From positions 14,620 through 78,619 of the forward strand of contig JAFAEX010000098.1 of assembly GCA_023423795.1 (NCBI GenBank): 64,000 nucleotides of DNA, written 5' to 3'. The stretch is from Chloroflexota bacterium. GTDB lineage: Bacteria; Chloroflexota; Chloroflexia; Thermomicrobiales; UBA6265. Below the pieces are notes generated by a model. It ran no database searches. It was not told the DNA's origin and worked only from the letters and a program-made list of their open reading frames with translations. Of the stretch, positions 1,757 through 49,982 are shown in pieces (the stretch's first letter is position 1; every line of letters begins with the position of its first letter). The translations under genes and the position numbers were made by a program.

Positions 1757-3217
1757 TTACGACGCTCCGGCGGAGTCGCCGGCGATTTCGAGCGCCATGA
1801 GGGCCAACTGGAGCGAAAGGCGGGTCGCCGGGTCGAGCGGGTCGAGACCGGTGAGGTTGGCGACCTGGCGCAACCGGTAGGCGAGGGTATTGCGGTGGAT
1901 CCCGAGCAGGCGGGCCGCTTCGACGCTCGCGCCGCCGGTTTCGAGGAAGACGGCGAGGGTCCGGCGCAATTCTCCCCGCCGGTCGCGGTCGGGGAGTTCT
2001 CGCAGGACGGCGGCGGAAAAGGCACGCAGGGCGTCGCCGCCGCGCAAGGGGTAGAGCACCTGCCATGCGCCGAGCGTGCGGGCGTCGTCGAAGGCGACGG
2101 CGCCGGGCTGGATGCGGCCGGAGCGGAGCAAGGTTCCGACGAACCGCGCCTCGGCAGCCGCCTCCGGAAGGCGCGAGAATCCGTGCGCCGGGGCAGAGAT
2201 CGCGAGCCAGCAGTCGCCGCCCGACCGAAGCGGACGGAACGATTCACCGGTGCGGTCCGTCGCGGCGCTTCGCGGCGATTGCGGTTTCCGGGTTTCGAGC
2301 AGCCAGGCAGGATCGCCATCGACCGAACCGGCATCGATCGGGGCTGACGCGCCGGCGTACCGCTGCACCTCCGAGATGGATGCGGCAGGCGCGATGGCGA
2401 CGCGGTACTCGGCGTCCGGCGAGAGGCCGAGCCGGAGCGCGGTGGCGCGCTGGGCGAGGTCGTCGGCGGGCTGCTCCCCGAACAGCAGCAGGTTCAGGCC
2501 ACGGGCGCGGGCGGGGCCGCGTGGGCGATCGGCATCGGCACGGCGGGCGGCGGCCGCAAGCGCTTCCGCCAGCCGCTCGGCGGCAATGCGCGCGAGGGCC
2601 GCGCGACGGCGGTCGGTCCAGCCGACGGCGGTCTCGAAGCCGCCGGGGATCGTCGCCCGCTCCCAGGCTGGGGAAATCGAACGGTCGGATCGTGGGTCAT
2701 GCTCGGCGAGGGTTTCCGACGCGGCGGCGAATCGGACCGGCAGGTCCAGCAACGTCGCGGCTTCGCGGACGAGGTGGACTGCGTCGGCAGAGACCGCGCC
2801 GAGTTTGCCGAGCATGCGGCCGAGGTCGGTACCGGTCCGGTACAACTCGCCGCGGAACTCGGTGAGGGCGCGGTTAAGGACGCCTTCGATTTCGCCGGGC
2901 GAACCGTCGCCGTGGAACGTGAGCACCGACAACGGAGAATCGGGCATATCGGGAGCGATGCCTGCCGGGACGATGAGCCCGATCGCGCCGAGCCGGTGGA
3001 GGTCGGTGATGAGGTCGGGCCACGGCTGCCCGGCGGCGGCGATGGCGCCCTCTCCGAAGAAGACGAGTTCGCCGCCGCGAAGCGTGGGCAGCATCGGCGG
3101 GGCGGTGCGGGCGGCAACGACCCAGCCCACCTCGGTATCGCCGGTGTCGCGGGCTTCCGACCAGAGCCGCAACCGTGGCTCCAGCGCGACCAGGTCGGCG
3201 AGCGTCACCTCCGCCAT
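1757..3217 (-). CDS. PucR/CdaR family transcriptional regulator
   Basis: C-terminal HTH GGASVEAARLLGIHRNTLAYRLRQVANLTG. N-terminal MAEVTLADLVALEPRLRL...LRGGELVFF is typical of the PucR N domain. The track ORF (to 3844) was trimmed to ATG 3217, which has AAGGA upstream. An alternative ATG lies at 3238. Confidence 0.8.
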   Translation of the reverse strand: MAEVTLADLVALEPRLRLWSEARDTGDTEVGWVVAARTAPPMLPTLRGGELVFFGEGAIAAAGQPWPDLITDLHRLGAIGLIVPAGIAPDMPDSPLSVLTFHGDGSPGEIEGVLNRALTEFRGELYRTGTDLGRMLGKLGAVSADAVHLVREAATLLDLPVRFAAASETLAEHDPRSDRSISPAWERATIPGGFETAVGWTDRRRAALARIAAERLAEALAAAARRADADRPRGPARARGLNLLLFGEQPADDLAQRATALRLGLSPDAEYRVAIAPAASISEVQRYAGASAPIDAGSVDGDPAWLLETRKPQSPRSAATDRTGESFRPLRSGGDCWLAISAPAHGFSRLPEAAAEARFVGTLLRSGRIQPGAVAFDDARTLGAWQVLYPLRGGDALRAFSAAVLRELPDRDRRGELRRTLAVFLETGGASVEAARLLGIHRNTLAYRLRQVANLTGLDPLDPATRLSLQLALMALEIAGDSAGAS

Positions 3218-3845
3218 GCGTGCGTGGCCATCCTTCATGCAACGATCGGGCGGTCTGTCGCGAATAGTACGGGACGGGGGCGAGCGTGCGAGACGCGTGC
3301 AGGGCCGGGCTTGCTCATCGGAGATGACGAATCTTGCCAGCGGACGAGCGGCGCGTGGAGCGAACGAGACTGATGGTTGCCGCCCGCCCGCAGGCGAGGG
3401 CGTTTGCCAGCCTGGCCGGAGGAACGACTGAGCGGGCGCGGTGACCGCGGTTGCCCTGCTGATCCGTTCACGGACCGTGCCCGACCAGGGTTGATGGCGC
3501 TTGCCAGGAAAGTCCGGGAATGGGCGAGGCGGGCCGGGGGCAGCATCAAACAAGCAAACGGTTCTAGCATCCGGTGCCGCCGTTGCCGGACTTTTCGTCC
3601 ATGCATTGTTCGTCGGAGCAGCACAAATGACAGCAGGTTTCACCCGGTGACCGGGGAGATCGATTCCGGCATTGCGTCCCGGCTCCGGACCTGCGACACG
3701 GTGTCCACGAAGCAGGATGTTGGGATGCGAACGGGACGCAATTCGGGGTGACCCCTTTTCGCGCGCCGGTGCGATCTGATACTGTACGTACACCCCGCAC
3801 GTTCTCTCCGGAAAGCGATCGCCGAGTTTGACCTTCGGGCACATC

Positions 3846-3873
3846 TTGTGCCTCGGGGATGATCGGCTATACT
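3846..3873 (+). promoter_or_regulatory. Putative sigma-70 type promoter of nrdJ (TTGTGC-N16-TATACT)
   Basis: TTGTGC at 3846-3851 and TATACT at 3868-3873 form the only AT-rich hexamer pair upstream of nrdJ. Palindrome CTACATGTAG (3872-3881) overlaps the -10/+1 region. Confidence 0.45.
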
Positions 3874-4109
3874 ACATGTAGCGGTGTCACCGGCCGGGTA
3901 CCCCAAATGGTGACCATCGCCCGCTTCGTGGGCCGACCGGTCGAGACCCAGCGGCCGGAGCCACGGGCGGGGTGGAACGCTTTCCCCCTCGGCAGAGAGC
4001 AGCGGCGAGCGTGGTCGGCAACGACCGCGAGCGCGGGGGTCACGGTTCTGCGTCGGACCGGGTGGGACGGTCCGCGGACGGAACGGCGCACGGGCGCGGA
4101 GAGGTCGGC

Positions 4110-7556
<3,447 letters not shown>

Positions 7557-14527: not shown

Positions 14528-14682
14528 CCCGGTCGATTGGAGCAGGAACGGACTGGCGCGGTTCGACCGCGCCGACGTCCTTGCGTTGGCTGTCCGGCCG
14601 CAGAGGGCAGCCCGGCACGAAGTCCGGGCGCAGGCGCCGCGATCCCACGTCGTACCGAGAAATCAGGCTGGTCACGCTCCCC

Positions 14683-14762
14683 GTCATCCCGAGCCTGTCG
14701 AGGGATCTCGTCGTTGCCGTAAATCGGAGGAGGACGAGATCCCTCGACAGGCTCGAGGTGAC
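14683..14762. repeat. REP-type palindromic hairpin (family GTCATCCCGAGCNTGTCGAGGGATCTCGTC)
   Basis: Left arm 14683-14712 and right arm 14733-14762 (GACGAGATCCCTCGACAGGCTCGAGGTGAC) with a 20-nt loop. It sits in an intergenic gap between convergent genes. Confidence 0.9.
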
Positions 14763-14804
14763 GATTGGGGCAGTGACGATTCGCCCGGTTTGGAACGAGG
14801 CGGA

Positions 14805-17997: not shown

Positions 17998-18090
17998 CCT
18001 GTTGCCGCACGAATCGCGAGCGGGCGGTACAGGCGGTTCGCACGTTCCGATGCATTGCGGTGACGGGTGCACCGTCACGGCCTCGCACCC

Positions 18091-18170
18091 GTCATCCCGA
18101 GCGTGTCGAGGGATCTCGTCGTCTCAGCAATTCGGGAAAGGACGCAATCCCTCGACACGCTCGGGATGAC
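18091..18170. repeat. REP-type palindromic hairpin (same family)
   Basis: Arms GTCATCCCGAGCGTGTCGAGGGATCTCGTC (18091-18120) and GACGCAATCCCTCGACACGCTCGGGATGAC (18141-18170) with a 20-nt loop. Confidence 0.9.
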
Positions 18171-21720: not shown

Positions 21721-21815
21721 ACCCATCGTCATCCCGAGCTTGTCGAGGGATCTCGTCGTCACCGTAGCGTGGGAGGGGGACGAGATCCCTCGACAAGCTC
21801 GGGATGACGATGGGT
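21721..21815. repeat. REP-type palindromic hairpin (same family, longest arms)
   Basis: 37-nt arms ACCCATCGTCATCCCGAGCTTGTCGAGGGATCTCGTC (21721-21757) and the exact complement at 21779-21815. Confidence 0.92.
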
Positions 21816-26909: not shown

Positions 26910-28328
26910 ATGAGCACCACGCCGGGGACGACGCGAGCCGCCACGATGGAGAAGATCGCCGCGCTGTGCAAGCGGCGGGGGATCGTCTTCCCCGGTTCGG
27001 ACATCTACGGCGGGCTCGCCAACACGTGGGATTACGGACCGATCGGCGCCGAACTCAAGCGCAACGTCAAGAACCTGTGGTGGGAGACGTTCGTCCACCG
27101 GCGGCGCGACGTGGTCGGGCTGGACGCCGGCATCCTCATGCACCCGAAGGTGTGGGAGGCGTCCGGGCACGTCCAGAACTTCAACGACCCGCTGGTGGAC
27201 TGCAAGACCTGCAAGGCGCGGTTCCGGGCCGACCACCTGATCGAGGAGCGGCTGGGGCGACACGTCGAGGGCAAGTCCCCGGCGGAAATGTCGGCAATCA
27301 TCCGCGAGGCCGGGCTGAAGTGCCCGAACTGCGGCAACGCGACGCTGACCGAAGCCCGCCAGTTCAACATGATGTTCAACACGACCATCGGCCCGGTCGA
27401 GGAGACGGGGACCGTCGTGTACCTGCGGCCGGAGACGGCGCAGGCGATGTTCGTCCAGTACAAGAATGTGGTGGCGACGGGCCGGGTGAAGGTGCCGTTT
27501 GGCATCGCCCAGATCGGCAAGGCGTTCCGCAACGAGATCACGCCGGGCAACTTCATCTTCCGGCTGCTCGAATTCGAGCAGATGGAGATCGAGTACTTCG
27601 TCAAGCCGGACGAGAGCGCGGCGGCCTTCGACGAATGGCTGAGCGCGATGAAGGGCTGGATGCGGCTGGTCGGCATCCGCGAGGACCACGTCCGCGTCCG
27701 CGAGCACGAGCAGGACGAACTCTCGCACTACTCCTCGCGCACCGTTGATTTCGAATACGAGTTCCCCGGCGCGATGGGCTGGCGCGAACTGTACGGCCTC
27801 GCGAACCGCACCGACTTCGACCTGAGCCAGCACCAGCAGGTGTCCGGCGAGGACCTGTCGTACTTCGACCAGGCCGAGAACCGGCGCTACATCCCCTACG
27901 TGATCGAGCCGACGTTCGGGGTGGACCGCACCTGCCTCGTGCTGCTGATCGACGCCTACGACGAAGAAGAGACGGTAGACGTCAACGGCAAGCCGGACAC
28001 CCGCGTCGTCCTGCGGCTGCACCCGCGGATCGCGCCGGTGAAGGCGGCGGTGCTGCCGCTGATGAAGAAGCCCGAACTGGCCGAACCGGCGCGCCGCCTC
28101 TTCGAGCGGCTGGAGGAAGAGGCCGGCGCGCTGGTCGAGTACGACGAGACCGGCAACATCGGCAAGCGGTACCGGCGGCAGGACGAGATCGGCACCCCGT
28201 TCTGCTTCACCTTCGACTTCGATTCGCTGGAAGACCACAGCGTCACGGTGCGCCACCGCGACGACATGAGCCAGGAGCGGATCGCCATTGCCGACGTGCC
28301 GGCGTGGCTGACCGAGCGCGTCCGGTAG
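26910..28328 (+). CDS. glyQS: Glycine--tRNA ligase (homodimeric alpha2 type)
   Basis: Track ORF trimmed to ATG 26910. Motifs: [39 protein letters not shown]...[25 protein letters not shown]. Confidence 0.92.
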
Positions 28329-28357
28329 CGAAGCGCGGGACCGCGGGACAACGAGGA

Positions 28358-28385
28358 GGGCCGCCCTCGATTGGGCGGTCCTTTT
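28358..28385 (+). terminator. Rho-independent terminator after glyQS
   Basis: Stem GGGCCGCCC (28358-28366) / GGGCGGTCC (28373-28381) with one G-U pair, loop TCGATT, then TTTT (28382-28385). Confidence 0.6.
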
Positions 28386-28460
28386 CGCGCCGGCGAGAAC
28401 CGGCTGATTGATCCGGAGCCGCCGTCAACGGTGGAGGGGTCGGCGGCGAGGCCGGTCCGG

Positions 28461-28733
28461 TTTGTTCGGTATTCATTCGGTATTTATTCGCCGTTTATTC
28501 GGCGGCGGATTTCCCATAACCATGCGGAAACCGGGTTTCTTCGGCGTCCCCCGCCAGCCTCGCGGGCGCAAACGGGGCGGGAGCACCCAGGAGGGCGTTC
28601 CGGGCGTTGAGGGTGGGAGGCGAGAGCGAACAAACACCATTTCGGACAGATAGATGCGTACGTACGCAGGGTCTCACGTTTGACCACATGCCGAAAAAAT
28701 ACCGAATAAAGGCCGAATAAATACCGAACAAAT
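28461..28733 (+). repeat. Copy A of an unclassified AT-rich element bounded by inverted arrays of 11-bp tandem units (MITE-like or iteron-like)
   Basis: Left array has TTCGG/TTCGC at 28465, 28476, 28487 and 28498. Right array has CCGAA at 28691, 28702, 28713 and 28724. Internal hairpin lies at 28510-28530. GCGAACAAAC (28626) sits exactly 30 nt before palindrome GCGTACGTACGC (28656-28667). A second copy lies at 48697-49087. Confidence 0.85.
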
Positions 28734-28817
28734 GGCCATCGCGAAGCCCCGACGGGTGCTTGCCAGCGGCCGGCGGCAGCGTAGGCAACCGCCCGGATTT
28801 TGTACAAGAACCGGTTT

Positions 28818-28922
28818 CAGAACCCCGCCAACTTCGCCCCGTCGTCGTCCCGAGCCTGTCGAGGGATCTCGTTTTCCCCGGATTAGTGCGGACGACGACG
28901 GGGCGAAGTTGGCGGGGTTCTG
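28818..28922. repeat. Perfect 33-bp inverted repeat enclosing a half REP site (probable bidirectional terminator)
   Basis: CAGAACCCCGCCAACTTCGCCCCGTCGTCGTCC (28818-28850) and its exact complement (28890-28922). The 39-nt loop contains CCCGAGCCTGTCGAGGGATCTCG, one REP arm. It starts 10 nt after the stop of the FDH membrane subunit. Confidence 0.9.
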
Positions 28923-28931
28923 AAACGTGCT

Positions 28932-29948
28932 CTACCTCGGCGAGCCCTTCCGGCGGGTCATCTCGAACGTCGCCTCCGGATCGTCCGCCGAGGCGTGGCC
29001 GGCGACGATGACGAGGTATCGAAGCAGGAAGCCGCCGGCCAGCGTGAGCAGCGTGGCCAGGACCGAGATGGGCCGGGCGTGGCGAGGAAACGATGCGGCG
29101 GCCGCGTTCAGGACGAGCGGAGCGGCGAGGCCCGCGCCGGCGACGCCGTGCCGGATCGTTTTGCCATGCCGTCCCTCGTGCAGCGGTTTTCCGCTGCGGC
29201 GGAGTCCCGTCAGCCAGGCCAGCAGGAGAGCCGCTTCGGCTACCCCGGCGATCTGCTCGAAGCGGGCGAGCCGGCCGTCGTGGCGGCGACTGGTAGCGCT
29301 CCTGACGAGGGCAACGGCGGCAGTCGCCGTCGAGAGGGCGGACGCGAGGAACAGCGGACCGAGGAGGACCGACCGACGCGCCCAGAGCGGCACCGCGGTC
29401 GCGCCGAGCAGGACGCCCGTATAGCCCGCGAGCAGCAGCCCGAGGCCGCCAGCGGCAACGTCGAGCAGGCGCGACGGCAGCAACCGGGTGACAGGCCGCA
29501 CGGCGGGCGGCAGGAGGCCGTCGGCGTCGGCCTGGAGCGCGACGGTGGCGGTCGCCGCGCCGCCGAACAGCACGAGACACCAGGTGCCGATGGACATTGG
29601 CGAGCGCAGTTTGAATACCCGCAGCATGTTGAGGAACCGCTCGGGCCGTCCGAGGTCGAGGATGAGCAGGGGAGGGCAGGCGAGGAACGCCGCGAACGAG
29701 ACGTAGCGGGCGGTCCGCACGACCGGTTTCGCTTTCCGGCCGCCGACCAGCGAGGCGACCACCGCGATCGCCTGCGCGCCGCCGGAGATACCTCCCAGGA
29801 AGAAGTAGACGATGACCAGCCACTTCCAGTGGGCGCGGTGGATGACGGGCACGCCGGCGTAGGAGCGCGGCCCCGAACGCTCTCGTTTCCTCCGCCGGCC
29901 GTCTCCGGGCTGCGGATCGGGCTGACCGCGCTCGCCGGATGCGTTCAC
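28932..29948 (-). CDS. NrfD/PsrC-type polytopic membrane subunit of the FDH complex
   Basis: Trimmed to GTG 29948, which forms a GTGA overlap with the upstream stop. Sequence WKWLVIVYFFLGGISGGAQAI..., with about 8 predicted TM helices by eye. Confidence 0.8.
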   Translation of the reverse strand: MNASGERGQPDPQPGDGRRRKRERSGPRSYAGVPVIHRAHWKWLVIVYFFLGGISGGAQAIAVVASLVGGRKAKPVVRTARYVSFAAFLACPPLLILDLGRPERFLNMLRVFKLRSPMSIGTWCLVLFGGAATATVALQADADGLLPPAVRPVTRLLPSRLLDVAAGGLGLLLAGYTGVLLGATAVPLWARRSVLLGPLFLASALSTATAAVALVRSATSRRHDGRLARFEQIAGVAEAALLLAWLTGLRRSGKPLHEGRHGKTIRHGVAGAGLAAPLVLNAAAASFPRHARPISVLATLLTLAGGFLLRYLVIVAGHASADDPEATFEMTRRKGSPR

Positions 29949-40889: not shown

Positions 40890-40911
40890 GCGAGGATTCC
40901 CGGGCGCTCTC

Positions 40912-40975
40912 GTCATCCCGAGTGCGTCAGCACTGTCATCCCTCGACAAGCTCGGGATGACAGTGCTGACGCACT
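40912..40975. repeat. Rearranged REP-derived hairpin after rpoD (probable terminator)
   Basis: A 22-bp perfect stem AGTGCGTCAGCACTGTCATCCC (40921-40942) / GGGATGACAGTGCTGACGCACT (40954-40975). A truncated REP arm GTCATCCCGAG lies at 40912-40922, and a REP right arm CCCTCGACAAGCTCGGGATGAC is embedded. Confidence 0.85.
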
Positions 40976-41050
40976 TAGGACGTCGGGGGGGTCCAGGGCT
41001 GCCAATTTCCGCGGAAGGTTGAGCGGGCGGCGCTGCCTGTGGGAAAGTAG

Positions 41051-42566: not shown

Positions 42567-42701
42567 GCGTCGTCGCAGGGGAGGGACCCGTGCCCTTCCT
42601 CGTTCTCTACCCGTCCTCTTCGAAACCGGCGCGGAGTTGGCTATCCCGCATCGGCATGTTCCCGTCGAGGGAGGGCACGGGTCCCTCCCCTGCGACGACG
42701 C
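42567..42701. repeat. Long inverted repeat of a second family (36-nt arms, 63-nt spacer)
   Basis: GCGTCGTCGCAGGGGAGGGACCCGTGCCCTTCCTCG (42567-42602) against the complement of 42666-42701, with one mismatch. It lies in an intergenic gap between obg and plsC. Confidence 0.85.
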
Positions 42702-47418: not shown

Positions 47419-48446
47419 GCGGCCGGCGGGAACGACCGCAGGTGAAGATCGCCGCACCAGCGGCGGCCAGCGCCCCGATCCGGCTGGACCGGCTCGTCAA
47501 CCCATACGGCGCGTCGCCGTTGGTGGCGGAATCGCTGGCGGCAGCCGACGACCTCCACCGCGACCCGGACCGGCTGCTGCCCGTGCTGCACCGGCGGCTC
47601 GCCGCGCAGTCGGGCGTGCCGGCCGGCTGGGTGCGGCCGGCGAACGGGATCGACGAGGTCATCAACGCGGCGATCGCCGGGGCGGGCGAAGGTCCGCTGG
47701 TGGTCTTCCCGCCGGGGAACGATCCGGCGGGGGAGCAACCATCGGCTGGCCGGGAACGGATCGATGTCTGGCGCAGTCAGGCCTTCCTGCCGGCGCTGGA
47801 CCCGGAAACGGCCGCCGAGTTGCCGCGCGACGGTATCGCGGTCCTCACGTCGCCGCACGACCCGTCCGGCGCGCTGCTGCCGGTGCAGGACGCGGTGCGG
47901 TTGGCGCGGTCGTGCAAATGGGTGTTCATCGACGAGCGCTGCGGCGGTTTCGGCCCGCGCTCGTTCTCCCGCCTCGCCCGCGAGTTCGACAACGTGGTGG
48001 TGTTCCAGACGCTGGAAACGTGGGCGGGGTTGTCGGCCTTCCCGGTTGGCTGGGCGGTTGGGTCGCCGCGCGCGCTGGACCGCATCTTTGCGGACTCCGT
48101 GCGCCCCGTTTCGGCCGGGGCAGCGGTGGCGGCGCTGGCGACGCTCGACGACATGCCCGGGGTGCTGGCGAACGTGCGCCGTGTGCGCGACGAGCGCTCC
48201 CGGTTGTTCCGCATGCTGCGAAAACTGAACATGGTCCAGCCGATGCCGTCGTGGGCCGGGTTCGTGCTCGCGCGCGCCACCCGCTCGACCGGGGACGAAT
48301 TGGCCGAGCAACTGCGACAGCGCGGCATCCTCGTCCTCCGGCCGTCCGGCCCGGCGCTCGAAGACGTGCTGCGAATCAGCGCCGGGCGGCCGTCGGACAC
48401 CGATGCCCTGCAACGAGCGCTGGTGGAGGCCGGACTCGTCATCTGA
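47415..48446 (+). CDS. Class I/II aminotransferase-fold protein (HisC-like) lacking the PLP-binding lysine
   Basis: GTG 47415 forms a GTGA overlap with the upstream stop. An alternative GTG lies at 47442. HisC-like layout: NPYG...GIDEVI...SPHDPSG...FIDE...VFQTLETWAGLSAFPVGWAVG...RISAGRPSD. T replaces the S-K lysine and P replaces the phosphate-binding R. Confidence 0.7.
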   Translation: MSGRRERPQVKIAAPAAASAPIRLDRLVNPYGASPLVAESLAAADDLHRDPDRLLPVLHRRLAAQSGVPAGWVRPANGIDEVINAAIAGAGEGPLVVFPPGNDPAGEQPSAGRERIDVWRSQAFLPALDPETAAELPRDGIAVLTSPHDPSGALLPVQDAVRLARSCKWVFIDERCGGFGPRSFSRLAREFDNVVVFQTLETWAGLSAFPVGWAVGSPRALDRIFADSVRPVSAGAAVAALATLDDMPGVLANVRRVRDERSRLFRMLRKLNMVQPMPSWAGFVLARATRSTGDELAEQLRQRGILVLRPSGPALEDVLRISAGRPSDTDALQRALVEAGLVI

Positions 48447-48525
48447 TCCCGAATCGGGGATGCCCGCCCGTCCGTCCGCGCCGGAACTGAGGCAAGATTC
48501 AGCACCCGTCCGGCATTGGCCCTTC

Positions 48526-48605
48526 GTCATCCCGAGCCTGTCGGGGGATTTCGTTTCCGCCTCGGCACATTGGACGACGAGATCCCTCGACAGGCTCGGG
48601 ATGAC
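48526..48605. repeat. REP-type palindromic hairpin (same family, slightly degenerate left arm)
   Basis: GTCATCCCGAGCCTGTCGGGGGATTTCGT (48526-48554) / ACGAGATCCCTCGACAGGCTCGGGATGAC (48577-48605). Confidence 0.88.
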
Positions 48606-48696
48606 GAGGGGCGGGCGGCCTCGGGAAAGGCGTGGCGTCATGCATGCCGCCGTTGGACCGAGCCGACGGCATGGTGCGCTCACCTTTTCCCAGAAT

Positions 48697-49087
48697 TGTT
48701 TTGGTGTTTATTCGGTATTTGTTCGGTCGCACGCAAGCGCGTACGTACGCGGCAAATAGGGCGATTTCGGGTTTATTCGCTCCCCCCTGGCCCTCTGGAA
48801 GCTCGGCACGGCGCCCGACGAACCCGAGCAGGCTTCCCCACGCCGCGCCGGAGCGCAGCCGGTAAACGCTGGTTCCGGTCGAGGTCGGTTCGACCGGATT
48901 CGGTCGCGTCCCTGGCCGGGATAGCGCGCGCATAAGCGAGAATCGGCACGACCGATGGTCGCCCCGGCGCCGCTGCCGCGACGCAGGGTGTGGGAGGCAG
49001 GCCGAACAAACCGGGTTTCCGCATGGATATGCGGAAACCCGGACCGCAAAAATACCGAATAAACGCCGAATCAATACCGAATAAACT
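48697..49087 (-). repeat. Copy B (inverted orientation) of the AT-rich element with 11-bp unit arrays
   Basis: TTTGG/TTCGG units at 48700, 48711 and 48722. Palindrome GCGTACGTACGC lies at 48739-48750. GTTTATTCGC at 48771-48780 is the reverse complement of GCGAATAAAC, again 30 nt from the palindrome. Perfect 14-bp hairpin CCGGGTTTCCGCAT/ATGCGGAAACCCGG lies at 49011-49042. CCGCA/CCGAA units at 49044, 49055, 49066 and 49077. Confidence 0.85.
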
Positions 49088-49241: not shown

Positions 49242-49982
49242 CTACCCCTCGCCGAGGGCGGCGCGCTGGTGGGCGAAGAGGTCGGTGAGGCCCAGTTCGG
49301 CCAGCAGGAGCAGTGAGTCGAGCGCTTCACGATTGAACGGCGCGCCCTCGGCGGTGGTCTGGATCTCGACGAACTCGCCGGCGGAGGTCATCACGACGTT
49401 GGCATCGACGTCGGCCCCGGCGTCCTCGGCGTAGGTGAGGTCGAGGACGGGCACGCCCTTGGCGATGCCGACACTGACGGCGGCCACCTGCGAGCGTATC
49501 GGGTTGCGCTTGACCGCGCCGCTTCCCTGCAATCCGCGACAGGCGATGGCGAGAGCCACCCACGCGCCGGTGATGGCGGCGCAACGGGTGCCGGCGTCGG
49601 CTTGCAGCACGTCGCAGTCGAGGATGATCTGGCGCTCGCCGAGGGCCTTCAGGTCCACCACGGCGCGCAGGGAACGGCCGATGAGCCGCTGGATCTCCAC
49701 GGTGCGGCCGCCCTGCTTGCCGGCGACCGCCTCGCGGTTCGTTCGCGTCGGGGTGGAGCGGGGGAGCATCGCGTACTCGGCGGTCACCCAGCCCTGGCCG
49801 CGGCCCATCAGCCAGCGGGGCAGGCGGTCCTCGACGGTGGCGGTGCAGAGCACCCGCGTACTGCCCTGGGTGATGAGCGCGGACCCTTCGGCGAAGGGCG
49901 CAGCGCCGGGTAGGATCTCGACCGGGCGCAGCGCGTCCGCGGCGCGGCCGTCGGGCCGTCCGTTCGCTCGTCCACCGCTCAC
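49242..49982 (-). CDS. rph: Ribonuclease PH
   Basis: Motifs: [12 protein letters not shown]...[16 protein letters not shown]...[15 protein letters not shown]...[16 protein letters not shown]...[12 protein letters not shown]. Confidence 0.92.

Follow-up and report, generated by a model that had tools for sequence, protein, structure and literature searches.

Two copies of a small repeat with facing arrays of phased 11-bp units in a Thermomicrobiales chromosome: a candidate foldback-type mobile element

Two copies of one element in spacers between convergent genes

The window, that is, the whole 64-kb stretch of DNA analysed here, belongs, judging from the best named homologues of its scaffold, to a Thermomicrobiales (Chloroflexota) organism of a metagenome. 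Based on gene tables and Pfam scans, it is ordinary core chromosome containing housekeeping genes only. Its cumulative GC skew was monotonic, and no tRNA genes were found in it. Rep and Par genes were absent from the window, and transposase, AAA+ regulator, phage and plasmid genes were absent both from it and from the 10 kb on either side. As regards transposase, Rep and Par genes in the window, this agreed with an earlier sequence-only reading of the same locus.

Two spacers of the window contain a copy of the same small element. Copy A lies between the GlyRS gene (ending at 28328) and an oppositely directed NrfD-family gene (ending at 28932), and copy B between an aminotransferase gene (ending at 48446) and the RNase PH gene on the opposite strand (ending at 49242). 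Hence, both pairs of neighbours are convergent. Each copy lies 130-160 nt past a stop codon and turns the same arm toward the gene concerned.

The two copies follow one plan (Table 1). A four-unit arm is succeeded by a hairpin, an inner unit (at +42 bp), a variable GC-rich core, a unit of opposite polarity, the palindrome GCGTACGTACGC (at +30 nt) and the second arm. The spacer measures 42 bp on the left and 54-65 bp on the right (copies A and B), and the distance between the arms differs by ~130 bp from one copy to the other. Between A and B, sequence identity is 80% in the left modules and 64% in the right ones. The core between the ends (180-300 bp) is non-coding: no ORF is conserved between A and B, and ORFs crossing the element gave no Pfam match. 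A search of the window against Rfam yielded no match at the gathering score, and with E up to 10 only chance-level matches on other features were returned; the sequence-only reading had likewise been unable to place the element in an RNA family.

Table 1. Positions of the element copies and of their modules in the window
Copy	Feature	Position	Strand	Details
A	Whole element	28461-28733		273 bp, non-coding; GC 0.55
A	Left arm, four head-to-tail 11-bp units TTTGTTCGGTA, TTCATTCGGTA, TTTATTCGCCG, TTTATTCGGCG	28461-28504	+	TTCGG starts at 28465, 28476 and 28498; TTCGC starts at 28487
A	Imperfect hairpin TTTCCCAT (TTTCC-CAT) / ATGCGGAAA	28510-28530	+	Arms 28510-28517 and 28522-28530
A	Isolated inner left unit TTTCTTCGGCG	28536-28546	+	42 bp past the last arm unit
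A	Variable GC-rich core	28547-28623	+	No conserved ORF, Pfam or Rfam match; GC 0.63
A	Isolated inner right unit GCGAACAAAC (+) / TTTGTTCGCTC (-)	28624-28635	-	GCGAACAAAC at 28626-28635; complementary to the inner left unit
A	Perfect palindrome GCGTACGTACGC	28656-28667	.	Start 30 nt after the start of GCGAACAAAC in the inner right unit
A	Right arm, with four units complementary to those of the left arm	28690-28733	-	CCGAA starts at 28691, 28702, 28713 and 28724; better described as 2 x 22 bp
B	Whole element	~48686-49085	-	~400 bp; orientation opposite to A
B	Left arm, four units TTTATTCGGTA, TTGATTCGGCG, TTTATTCGGTA, TTTTTGCGGTC	49043-49085	-	Left end reads TTTATTCGG
B	Perfect 14-bp-stem hairpin CCGGGTTTCCGCAT-ATCC-ATGCGGAAACCCGG, then TTTGTTCGG	49011-49042	-	Terminator-like by pattern
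B	Isolated inner left unit TTTGTTCGGCC	49000-49010	-	42 bp past the last arm unit, as in A
B	Isolated inner right unit TTTATTCGCTC (+ strand)	48772-48782	+	
B	Perfect palindrome GCGTACGTACGC, identical to that of A	48739-48750	.	Same 30-nt offset as in A, start to start relative to the inner unit
B	Right arm, with two well-preserved units (48716-48737) and two in-phase decayed units	48686-48737	+	The decayed pair are the two outermost units

The arms of copy A (28461-28503 and 28690-28732) are 43 nt each and 84% complementary, with no such pair expected by chance. The sequence-only reading had seen in copy A a distinct element, present more than once, that ends in long imperfect inverted repeats of phased 11-bp units, which was borne out, and every coordinate that it had given for this copy, be it of units, hairpin, palindrome or the 30-nt offset, was verified. 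Its designation of the element as AT-rich stood for the arms (GC 0.41 and 0.36, in a window of 0.70) and fell for the core (0.63) and for the element as a whole (0.55). The core of copy B has a GC of 0.69 and is ~140 bases longer than that of copy A. The 11-bp phasing, the loss of which in further copies had been named as an argument against the element, is retained in copy B, including its decayed units.

Over 20 units the consensus was TTTRTTCGGYN, with 9 of the 11 positions strongly conserved. In three of the four arms the unit endings alternate between ...GGTA and ...GGCS, giving a 22-bp super-period. For the right arm of copy A, Tandem Repeats Finder returned 88% matches with a 22-bp period vs. 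72% with an 11-bp period. Copy A has the termini TTTGTTCGG...CCGAACAAA, with TGT/ACA located 2 nt inward.

We have searched the 64-kb window with a pattern of three consecutive units, allowing up to two mismatches. Seven matches were obtained, all of them in copy A or B, vs. 0.00 in dinucleotide-preserving shuffles (n = 100); a looser two-unit pattern gave 11 matches vs. 0.67 in shuffles. Simple 11-bp tandem repeats abound in many genomes, high-GC ones included, and permuted control cores were as frequent as TTCGG in viral contigs, which would suit a chance resemblance or the separate expansion of an 11-bp microsatellite at each of the two sites. Both are extremely improbable given those counts and given that facing arrays, a hairpin arm, inner units and a 12-bp palindrome occur at identical offsets in both copies. 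The modules other than the arrays that are common to A and B refute both.

Two palindromes are conserved between the copies, namely GCGTACGTACGC and a hairpin with 12-bp arms. The perfect hairpin of copy B reads GGGTTTCCGCAT-ATCC-ATGCGGAAACCC in the orientation common with A. That of copy A has the same 3' arm and a 5' arm that is one base short. Single strands of both copies were predicted to fold into one long snap-back structure, in which the arms pair with each other and so do the inner units (z = -5.0 and -6.1). Judging from the two copies compared, between which the hairpin displays no compensatory change, nothing would argue for selection on RNA structure.

Two other parts of the window are recorded here as separate observations. 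A long inverted repeat at 42567-42701, with 36-nt arms that are 97% complementary and 63 nt apart, occupies another spacer, whose neighbours are an Obg-like gene and, on the other strand, an acyltransferase gene. A gene-free region of ~890 bp (~3217-4110) precedes a class II ribonucleotide reductase gene (Ribonuc_red_2_N/lgC/TSCPD) and gave no Rfam match at the gathering score.

Orthologous sites in relatives and copy number

Both insertion sites were compared with relatives having the same gene order and a protein identity of 83-94%. The element was absent from five contigs with the same flanking genes. At site A, the GlyRS/NrfD spacer is 27 bp long in L305 (90% identity) and 294 bp long, without arrays, in L304 (94%), and in L307 (89%) the GlyRS and NrfD genes overlap. 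At site B, the RNase PH/aminotransferase spacer measures 121 bp in L294 and L295 (RNase PH 93% identical), and L296 (83%) carries another gene in its place. Judged against these relatives with the same gene order, the element is present by insertion. The sequence-only reading had proposed that copies confined to syntenic orthologous positions would speak against mobility. With five contigs that keep the flanking genes and lack the element, the comparison favoured mobility.

The comparison with L294 also helped to delimit copy B. The flanks in the window and in L294 are homologous as far as ...CCGAGTT, and the homology is lost where the first unit of copy B starts; this set the outer limit at 49083-49086. 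A weaker match restarts just past the last decayed unit (GGCGTTCGC vs. GGTGAGCGC), and this weak flank homology, together with the in-phase decayed units, set the limit near 48686. The empty site GAGTT/GGCG corresponds to GAGTT-element-GGTG in the window. Such an arrangement fits a clean insertion of ~400 bp, with a duplication that would not exceed 2 bases. Neither A nor B is bordered by a direct repeat of at least 3 bp, in line with the absence of a visible target-site duplication reported earlier. We have also considered an inverted repeat reaching into the flanks of copy A; it was dropped, since the similarity is weak and the comparison of copy B with the empty site contradicts it.

The ~84 kb of scaffold covered (the window plus 10 kb on each side, neither side adding a further copy) contained two copies, and ~50 kb of DNA of the relatives contained none. 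Logan is a de Bruijn assembly with k = 31, in which a contig stops on entering sequence that has more than one context. Window position 49057, which lies 30 nt (k-1) inside the end of copy B, is the end point of two Logan contigs that come from different samples. These breaks would be expected if a repeat of at least 31 nt starting from 49086 recurred elsewhere, which hints indirectly at more copies. The other contig ends at the right-hand sides of A and B were only collapsed duplicates of the same scaffold.

The location of the copies raised an RNA-level explanation, which is compatible with a mobile origin. In a termination element of the SPRITE or REP style, GC-rich hairpins followed by U-rich arrays would stop or stabilise read-through transcripts. 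The placement of both copies between convergent genes, 130-160 nt past a stop codon and with the same arm toward the gene, would suit such a role, and a bias for convergent spacers is shared by SPRITE and REP (PMC3184786). Nevertheless, relatives do without the element, and a hairpin followed by a T run, located upstream of copy A at ~28355-28395, already provides GlyRS with a terminator. The 14-bp hairpin of copy B with the subsequent TTTGTTCGG was called terminator-like, but terminator-like matches were not in excess (2 vs. 0.7-0.8 in shuffles). Copy A has GC hairpins just outside each arm, followed by T-rich first units, whereas its internal hairpin has decayed on one arm without a compensating change. 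Termination would furthermore leave unexplained the four phased units per side, the inner units and the conserved 12-bp palindrome. We regard it as an unlikely explanation.

A likeness to SPRITE and REP/BIME would lie in the convergent-gene spacers and the hairpin-plus-U-run motifs. REPs are single palindromes of 20-40 nt with a GTAG or CGTC tag, whereas the present element spans 270-400 bp and has AT-rich arms and no tag; SPRITE, unlike the element, is devoid of phased arrays.

A separate repeat family of the window does fit the REP/BIME description. It consists of near-perfect palindromes of 80-125 bp (14675-14769, 18088-18170, 21721-21815, 28807-28933, 40899-40997 and 48519-48612) and is commoner than the element with 11-bp arrays. 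The core CGTCATCCCGAGCCTGTCGAGGGATCTCGTC and the CGTC tag at the outer end make it REP-like. One such palindrome sits 70-85 bp past the "right" end of each copy of the array element, and an ENA contig terminates in the loop of the palindrome at 28807-28933.

Phased 11-bp arrays in other genomes

We have then looked for the element outside this lineage. A pattern scan of a genome collection with TTCGGNNTTNNTTCGGNNTTNNTTCG returned at least 106 loci, mostly from Bacteroidota and representing unrelated arrays; in a BLAST of the element against these 106 loci, the arrays alone matched. The same was true, among the matches listed, of a metagenome scan with a tighter TTCGGTATT... pattern. Across the scans, three phased TTCGG units were present at hundreds of loci at least, falling into several unrelated classes. 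Among the matches listed, no class shared more than the arrays with the window element, and neither a long autonomous version nor a cognate transposase appeared in the genome and metagenome scans. The conserved modules were translated in six frames and the peptides compared with 5.8 billion predicted proteins, where spurious ORFs on other copies could have been recorded, with no hit at E <= 1. BLAST against plasmid and phage collections gave no match, and element-specific motifs were not found in viral contigs.

Stretches of three 11-bp units in viral contigs numbered 63 for TTCGG, 106 for TTGCG and 62 for TTGGC, the latter two being permuted-core controls. As the control cores were equally productive, the shared 5-base core reflects the query and not homology. 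A single cross-phylum family of TTCGG arrays with a universal binding protein was accordingly rejected, the control cores being about as frequent or more so, and a 5-base core common to several phyla should not be taken as evidence of a family. Likenesses to other systems (PurBox, AWWWCCGAACWWT; tor boxes; the LexA Cheo box; the MuA site consensus) were also dropped, since orientation, spacing or host range was wrong.

Phased 11-bp arrays are a generic architecture, encountered in phage origins, promoter-proximal arrays, microsatellites and small foldback repeats. Sites for protein oligomers are commonly built from units spaced by one helical turn, frequently as two blocks that face each other, both in mobile DNA and in origins. 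Several of the classes are described here in their own right. A perfect foldback of ~95 bp, in which four TTTCTTCGGTR units face four complementary ones across a 7-bp centre, is dispersed at high copy number in more than 30 contigs of one Bacteroidota-like metagenome organism of ~56% GC (loci L116-L229, contigs JAEEG*; e.g. L138 3252-3349 and L212 2160-2255), and different flanks are joined there. In L290 (1474-5519, IMGVR_UViG_3300045988_183708), a module with a Mu-like transposase (phrog_310), a MuB-like ATPase (phrog_296, TniB/AAA_22) and a third ATPase is bracketed by facing three-unit 11-bp arrays (TTCCTTCGGAG) located 4 kb apart. The dispersed ~95-bp foldback and the arrays bracketing L290 indicate that the facing-array architecture does occur in mobile DNA.

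In Bacteroidota, DUF6266 genes (~210 aa) at 10 loci, L039, L056, L068, L073, L089 and L098 among them, are preceded at a distance of 50-200 bp by facing arrays with three to five 11-bp units (GGGTTTSTTCG); no mention of DUF6266 was found in the literature searched. The window element might likewise be a cassette for a host DNA-binding protein, with arrays that recruit a head-to-tail oligomer, e.g. of a winged-helix response regulator or a ribbon-helix-helix protein, and face each other so as to loop or wrap the core as an operator, architectural or centromere-like site. Direct repeats spaced by 11 bp, as in the element, are typical of OmpR/PhoB-type regulators and of R1 ParR-parC. The conservation of 9 of the 11 unit positions across 20 units, despite drift elsewhere in the element, would be in keeping with such a site, as would the two different conserved palindromes (the hairpin with 12-bp arms and GCGTACGTACGC). 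However, neither copy is in a promoter region, both being at the 3' ends of both neighbours, and no sigma-70-like promoter was found in either spacer. There is no adjacent par, rep or regulator gene, close relatives with the same gene order lack the element, and with between-arm distances differing by ~130 bp no fixed loop geometry is kept. Taken together, we consider the cassette quite unlikely.

In phage contigs, 11-bp arrays lie within replication-initiator genes, which encode a DUF6291 protein next to DnaB, a DnaD-like loader or phrog_2447 (loci L241/L244/L245/L264, L233/L284/L286 and L238/L260/L263/L270/L289), and in L258 (8145-8330) outward-facing arrays surround a 60-bp AT-only stretch. 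They are probably iteron-containing origins. The element could by analogy be the remnant of a plasmid or phage iteron origin, or the end of an integrated element, as arrays occur in the initiator genes of viral contigs and flank the AT-only stretch of L258. Its own arrays, by contrast, face inward around a GC-rich core (0.63-0.69) instead of an AT-rich unwinding region. Phage and plasmid genes are missing from the window and from 10 kb on either side, both copies are in core chromosome, and searches of the phage and plasmid collections gave no match, element-specific motifs being absent from viral contigs as well. An origin remnant is very improbable, and this reading is close to refuted.

The sequence-only reading had likened the arrays to iteron or centromere sites. 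The analogy did not withstand the comparison: rep and par are not adjacent, the DNA between the arrays is GC-rich, and the two copies lie 20 kb apart in core chromosome with a monotonic GC skew. The element does resemble R1 parC and iterons in having 11-bp units one helical turn apart in two blocks. The blocks of R1 parC are nonetheless direct and lie around the par promoter, beside parM and parR, a context that the element lacks. Iterons are found beside or inside a rep gene and by an AT-rich region, whereas the neighbours of the element are the GlyRS, NrfD, RNase PH and aminotransferase genes.

The element as a candidate non-autonomous mobile element

The element is a real, well-delimited and previously uncatalogued small repeat. 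From its observed anatomy, the second copy, the absence at orthologous sites and the lack of coding capacity, we propose with moderate confidence that it is a non-autonomous mobile element of the foldback type, i.e. a MITE-like relic, with multi-site ends. That both copies were inserted in gene-free spacers between convergent genes of this Thermomicrobiales lineage forms part of the proposal. A mobile origin best accounts for copies that lie at two unrelated loci in opposite orientations and follow one ordered plan, for their long inverted ends and non-coding sequence, for the empty orthologous sites and for a location in the least harmful type of spacer. The decay of copy B and the 20-36% divergence between A and B suggest that the copies are old and probably inactive.

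Several observations count against a mobile element. Only two copies were present in ~84 kb and none in ~50 kb of relatives, target-site duplications are missing from both, and TG...CA termini are not shared by all ends. The matches listed included no long version or cognate transposase, and with the copies 20-36% diverged any movement would be old. A role in termination or as a binding cassette may possibly coexist with a mobile origin, but both explain the phased units and the insertion polymorphism less economically.

As to mechanism, each end would constitute a multi-site platform, with four to five 11-bp units that are spaced by one helical turn and amount to two 22-bp sites, a short palindromic site and one more unit 4-6 turns further in. 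We infer that a transposase or recombinase would be supplied in trans from a gene outside the window. Several protomers of this putative binding protein could bind cooperatively along one face of each arm, and the bound mirror-image ends would then pair in a presumed synapsis, upon which the segment would move. Any current activity is equally conjectural.

Bacterial MITEs, including Correia, RUP and Nezha, have been reviewed (PMC3184786). The element shares with them a size below ~400 bp, a non-coding and intergenic nature, terminal inverted repeats around a core, apparently dispersed copies, a long hairpin fold and insertion polymorphism. It departs from the MITE design, with its single 15-30 bp transposase site per end, in having ends of four to five phased 11-bp units and a detached inner unit. 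Also unlike MITEs, it has no target-site duplication and no known matching insertion sequence, and two copies were seen. The BrickBuilt MITE of Porphyromonas gingivalis, in which small inverted ends enclose one internal array of 23-nt repeats, is likewise a bacterial intergenic MITE with a spacer-free tandem repeat (PMC4596501). In the present element, unlike in BrickBuilt, the 11-bp repeats are themselves the inverted ends, arranged as two facing arrays.

The ends of Mu and Tn7/Tn5053 contain several direct binding sites each, one end being compact and one site being set apart by a spacer, a design that the putative multi-site ends of the element would resemble. Sites for MuA and TnsB belong to the ~22 bp size class, to which the apparent 22-bp super-period in three of the four element arms may be compared. 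Unlike Mu and Tn7 ends, the element lacks a 5-bp duplication, consistent TG...CA termini and any sequence likeness to MuA or TnsB sites, has no transposase or ATPase genes between its ends or nearby, and totals only 270-400 bp.

Foldback (FB) transposons, such as Drosophila FB, Tetris and Tm1, are found in eukaryotes. With their long inverted ends of short tandem repeats, variable middle and snap-back hairpin, they would be the closest architectural analogue, although they are eukaryotic and kilobases long, and the resemblance carries no evidence of relationship to the element. A more far-reaching interpretation, which we deem possible but doubtful, is that A and B are end-pairs of an uncharacterised Chloroflexota transposon family, a prokaryotic counterpart of eukaryotic Foldback. 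Its recombinase would read cooperative arrays of 11-bp repeats, paired to 22 bp, plus an inner site, and would insert without target duplication. If so, its chemistry or assembly would differ from those of the catalogued IS families.

We know of no described small bacterial element whose inverted repeats are built of phased tandem units. Should the arms be true multi-site transposon ends, the element would represent a bacterial MITE of that design and would point to a Thermomicrobiales transposase not yet known. Elements of this kind break short-read assemblies and inflate the spacers between convergent genes in these MAGs.
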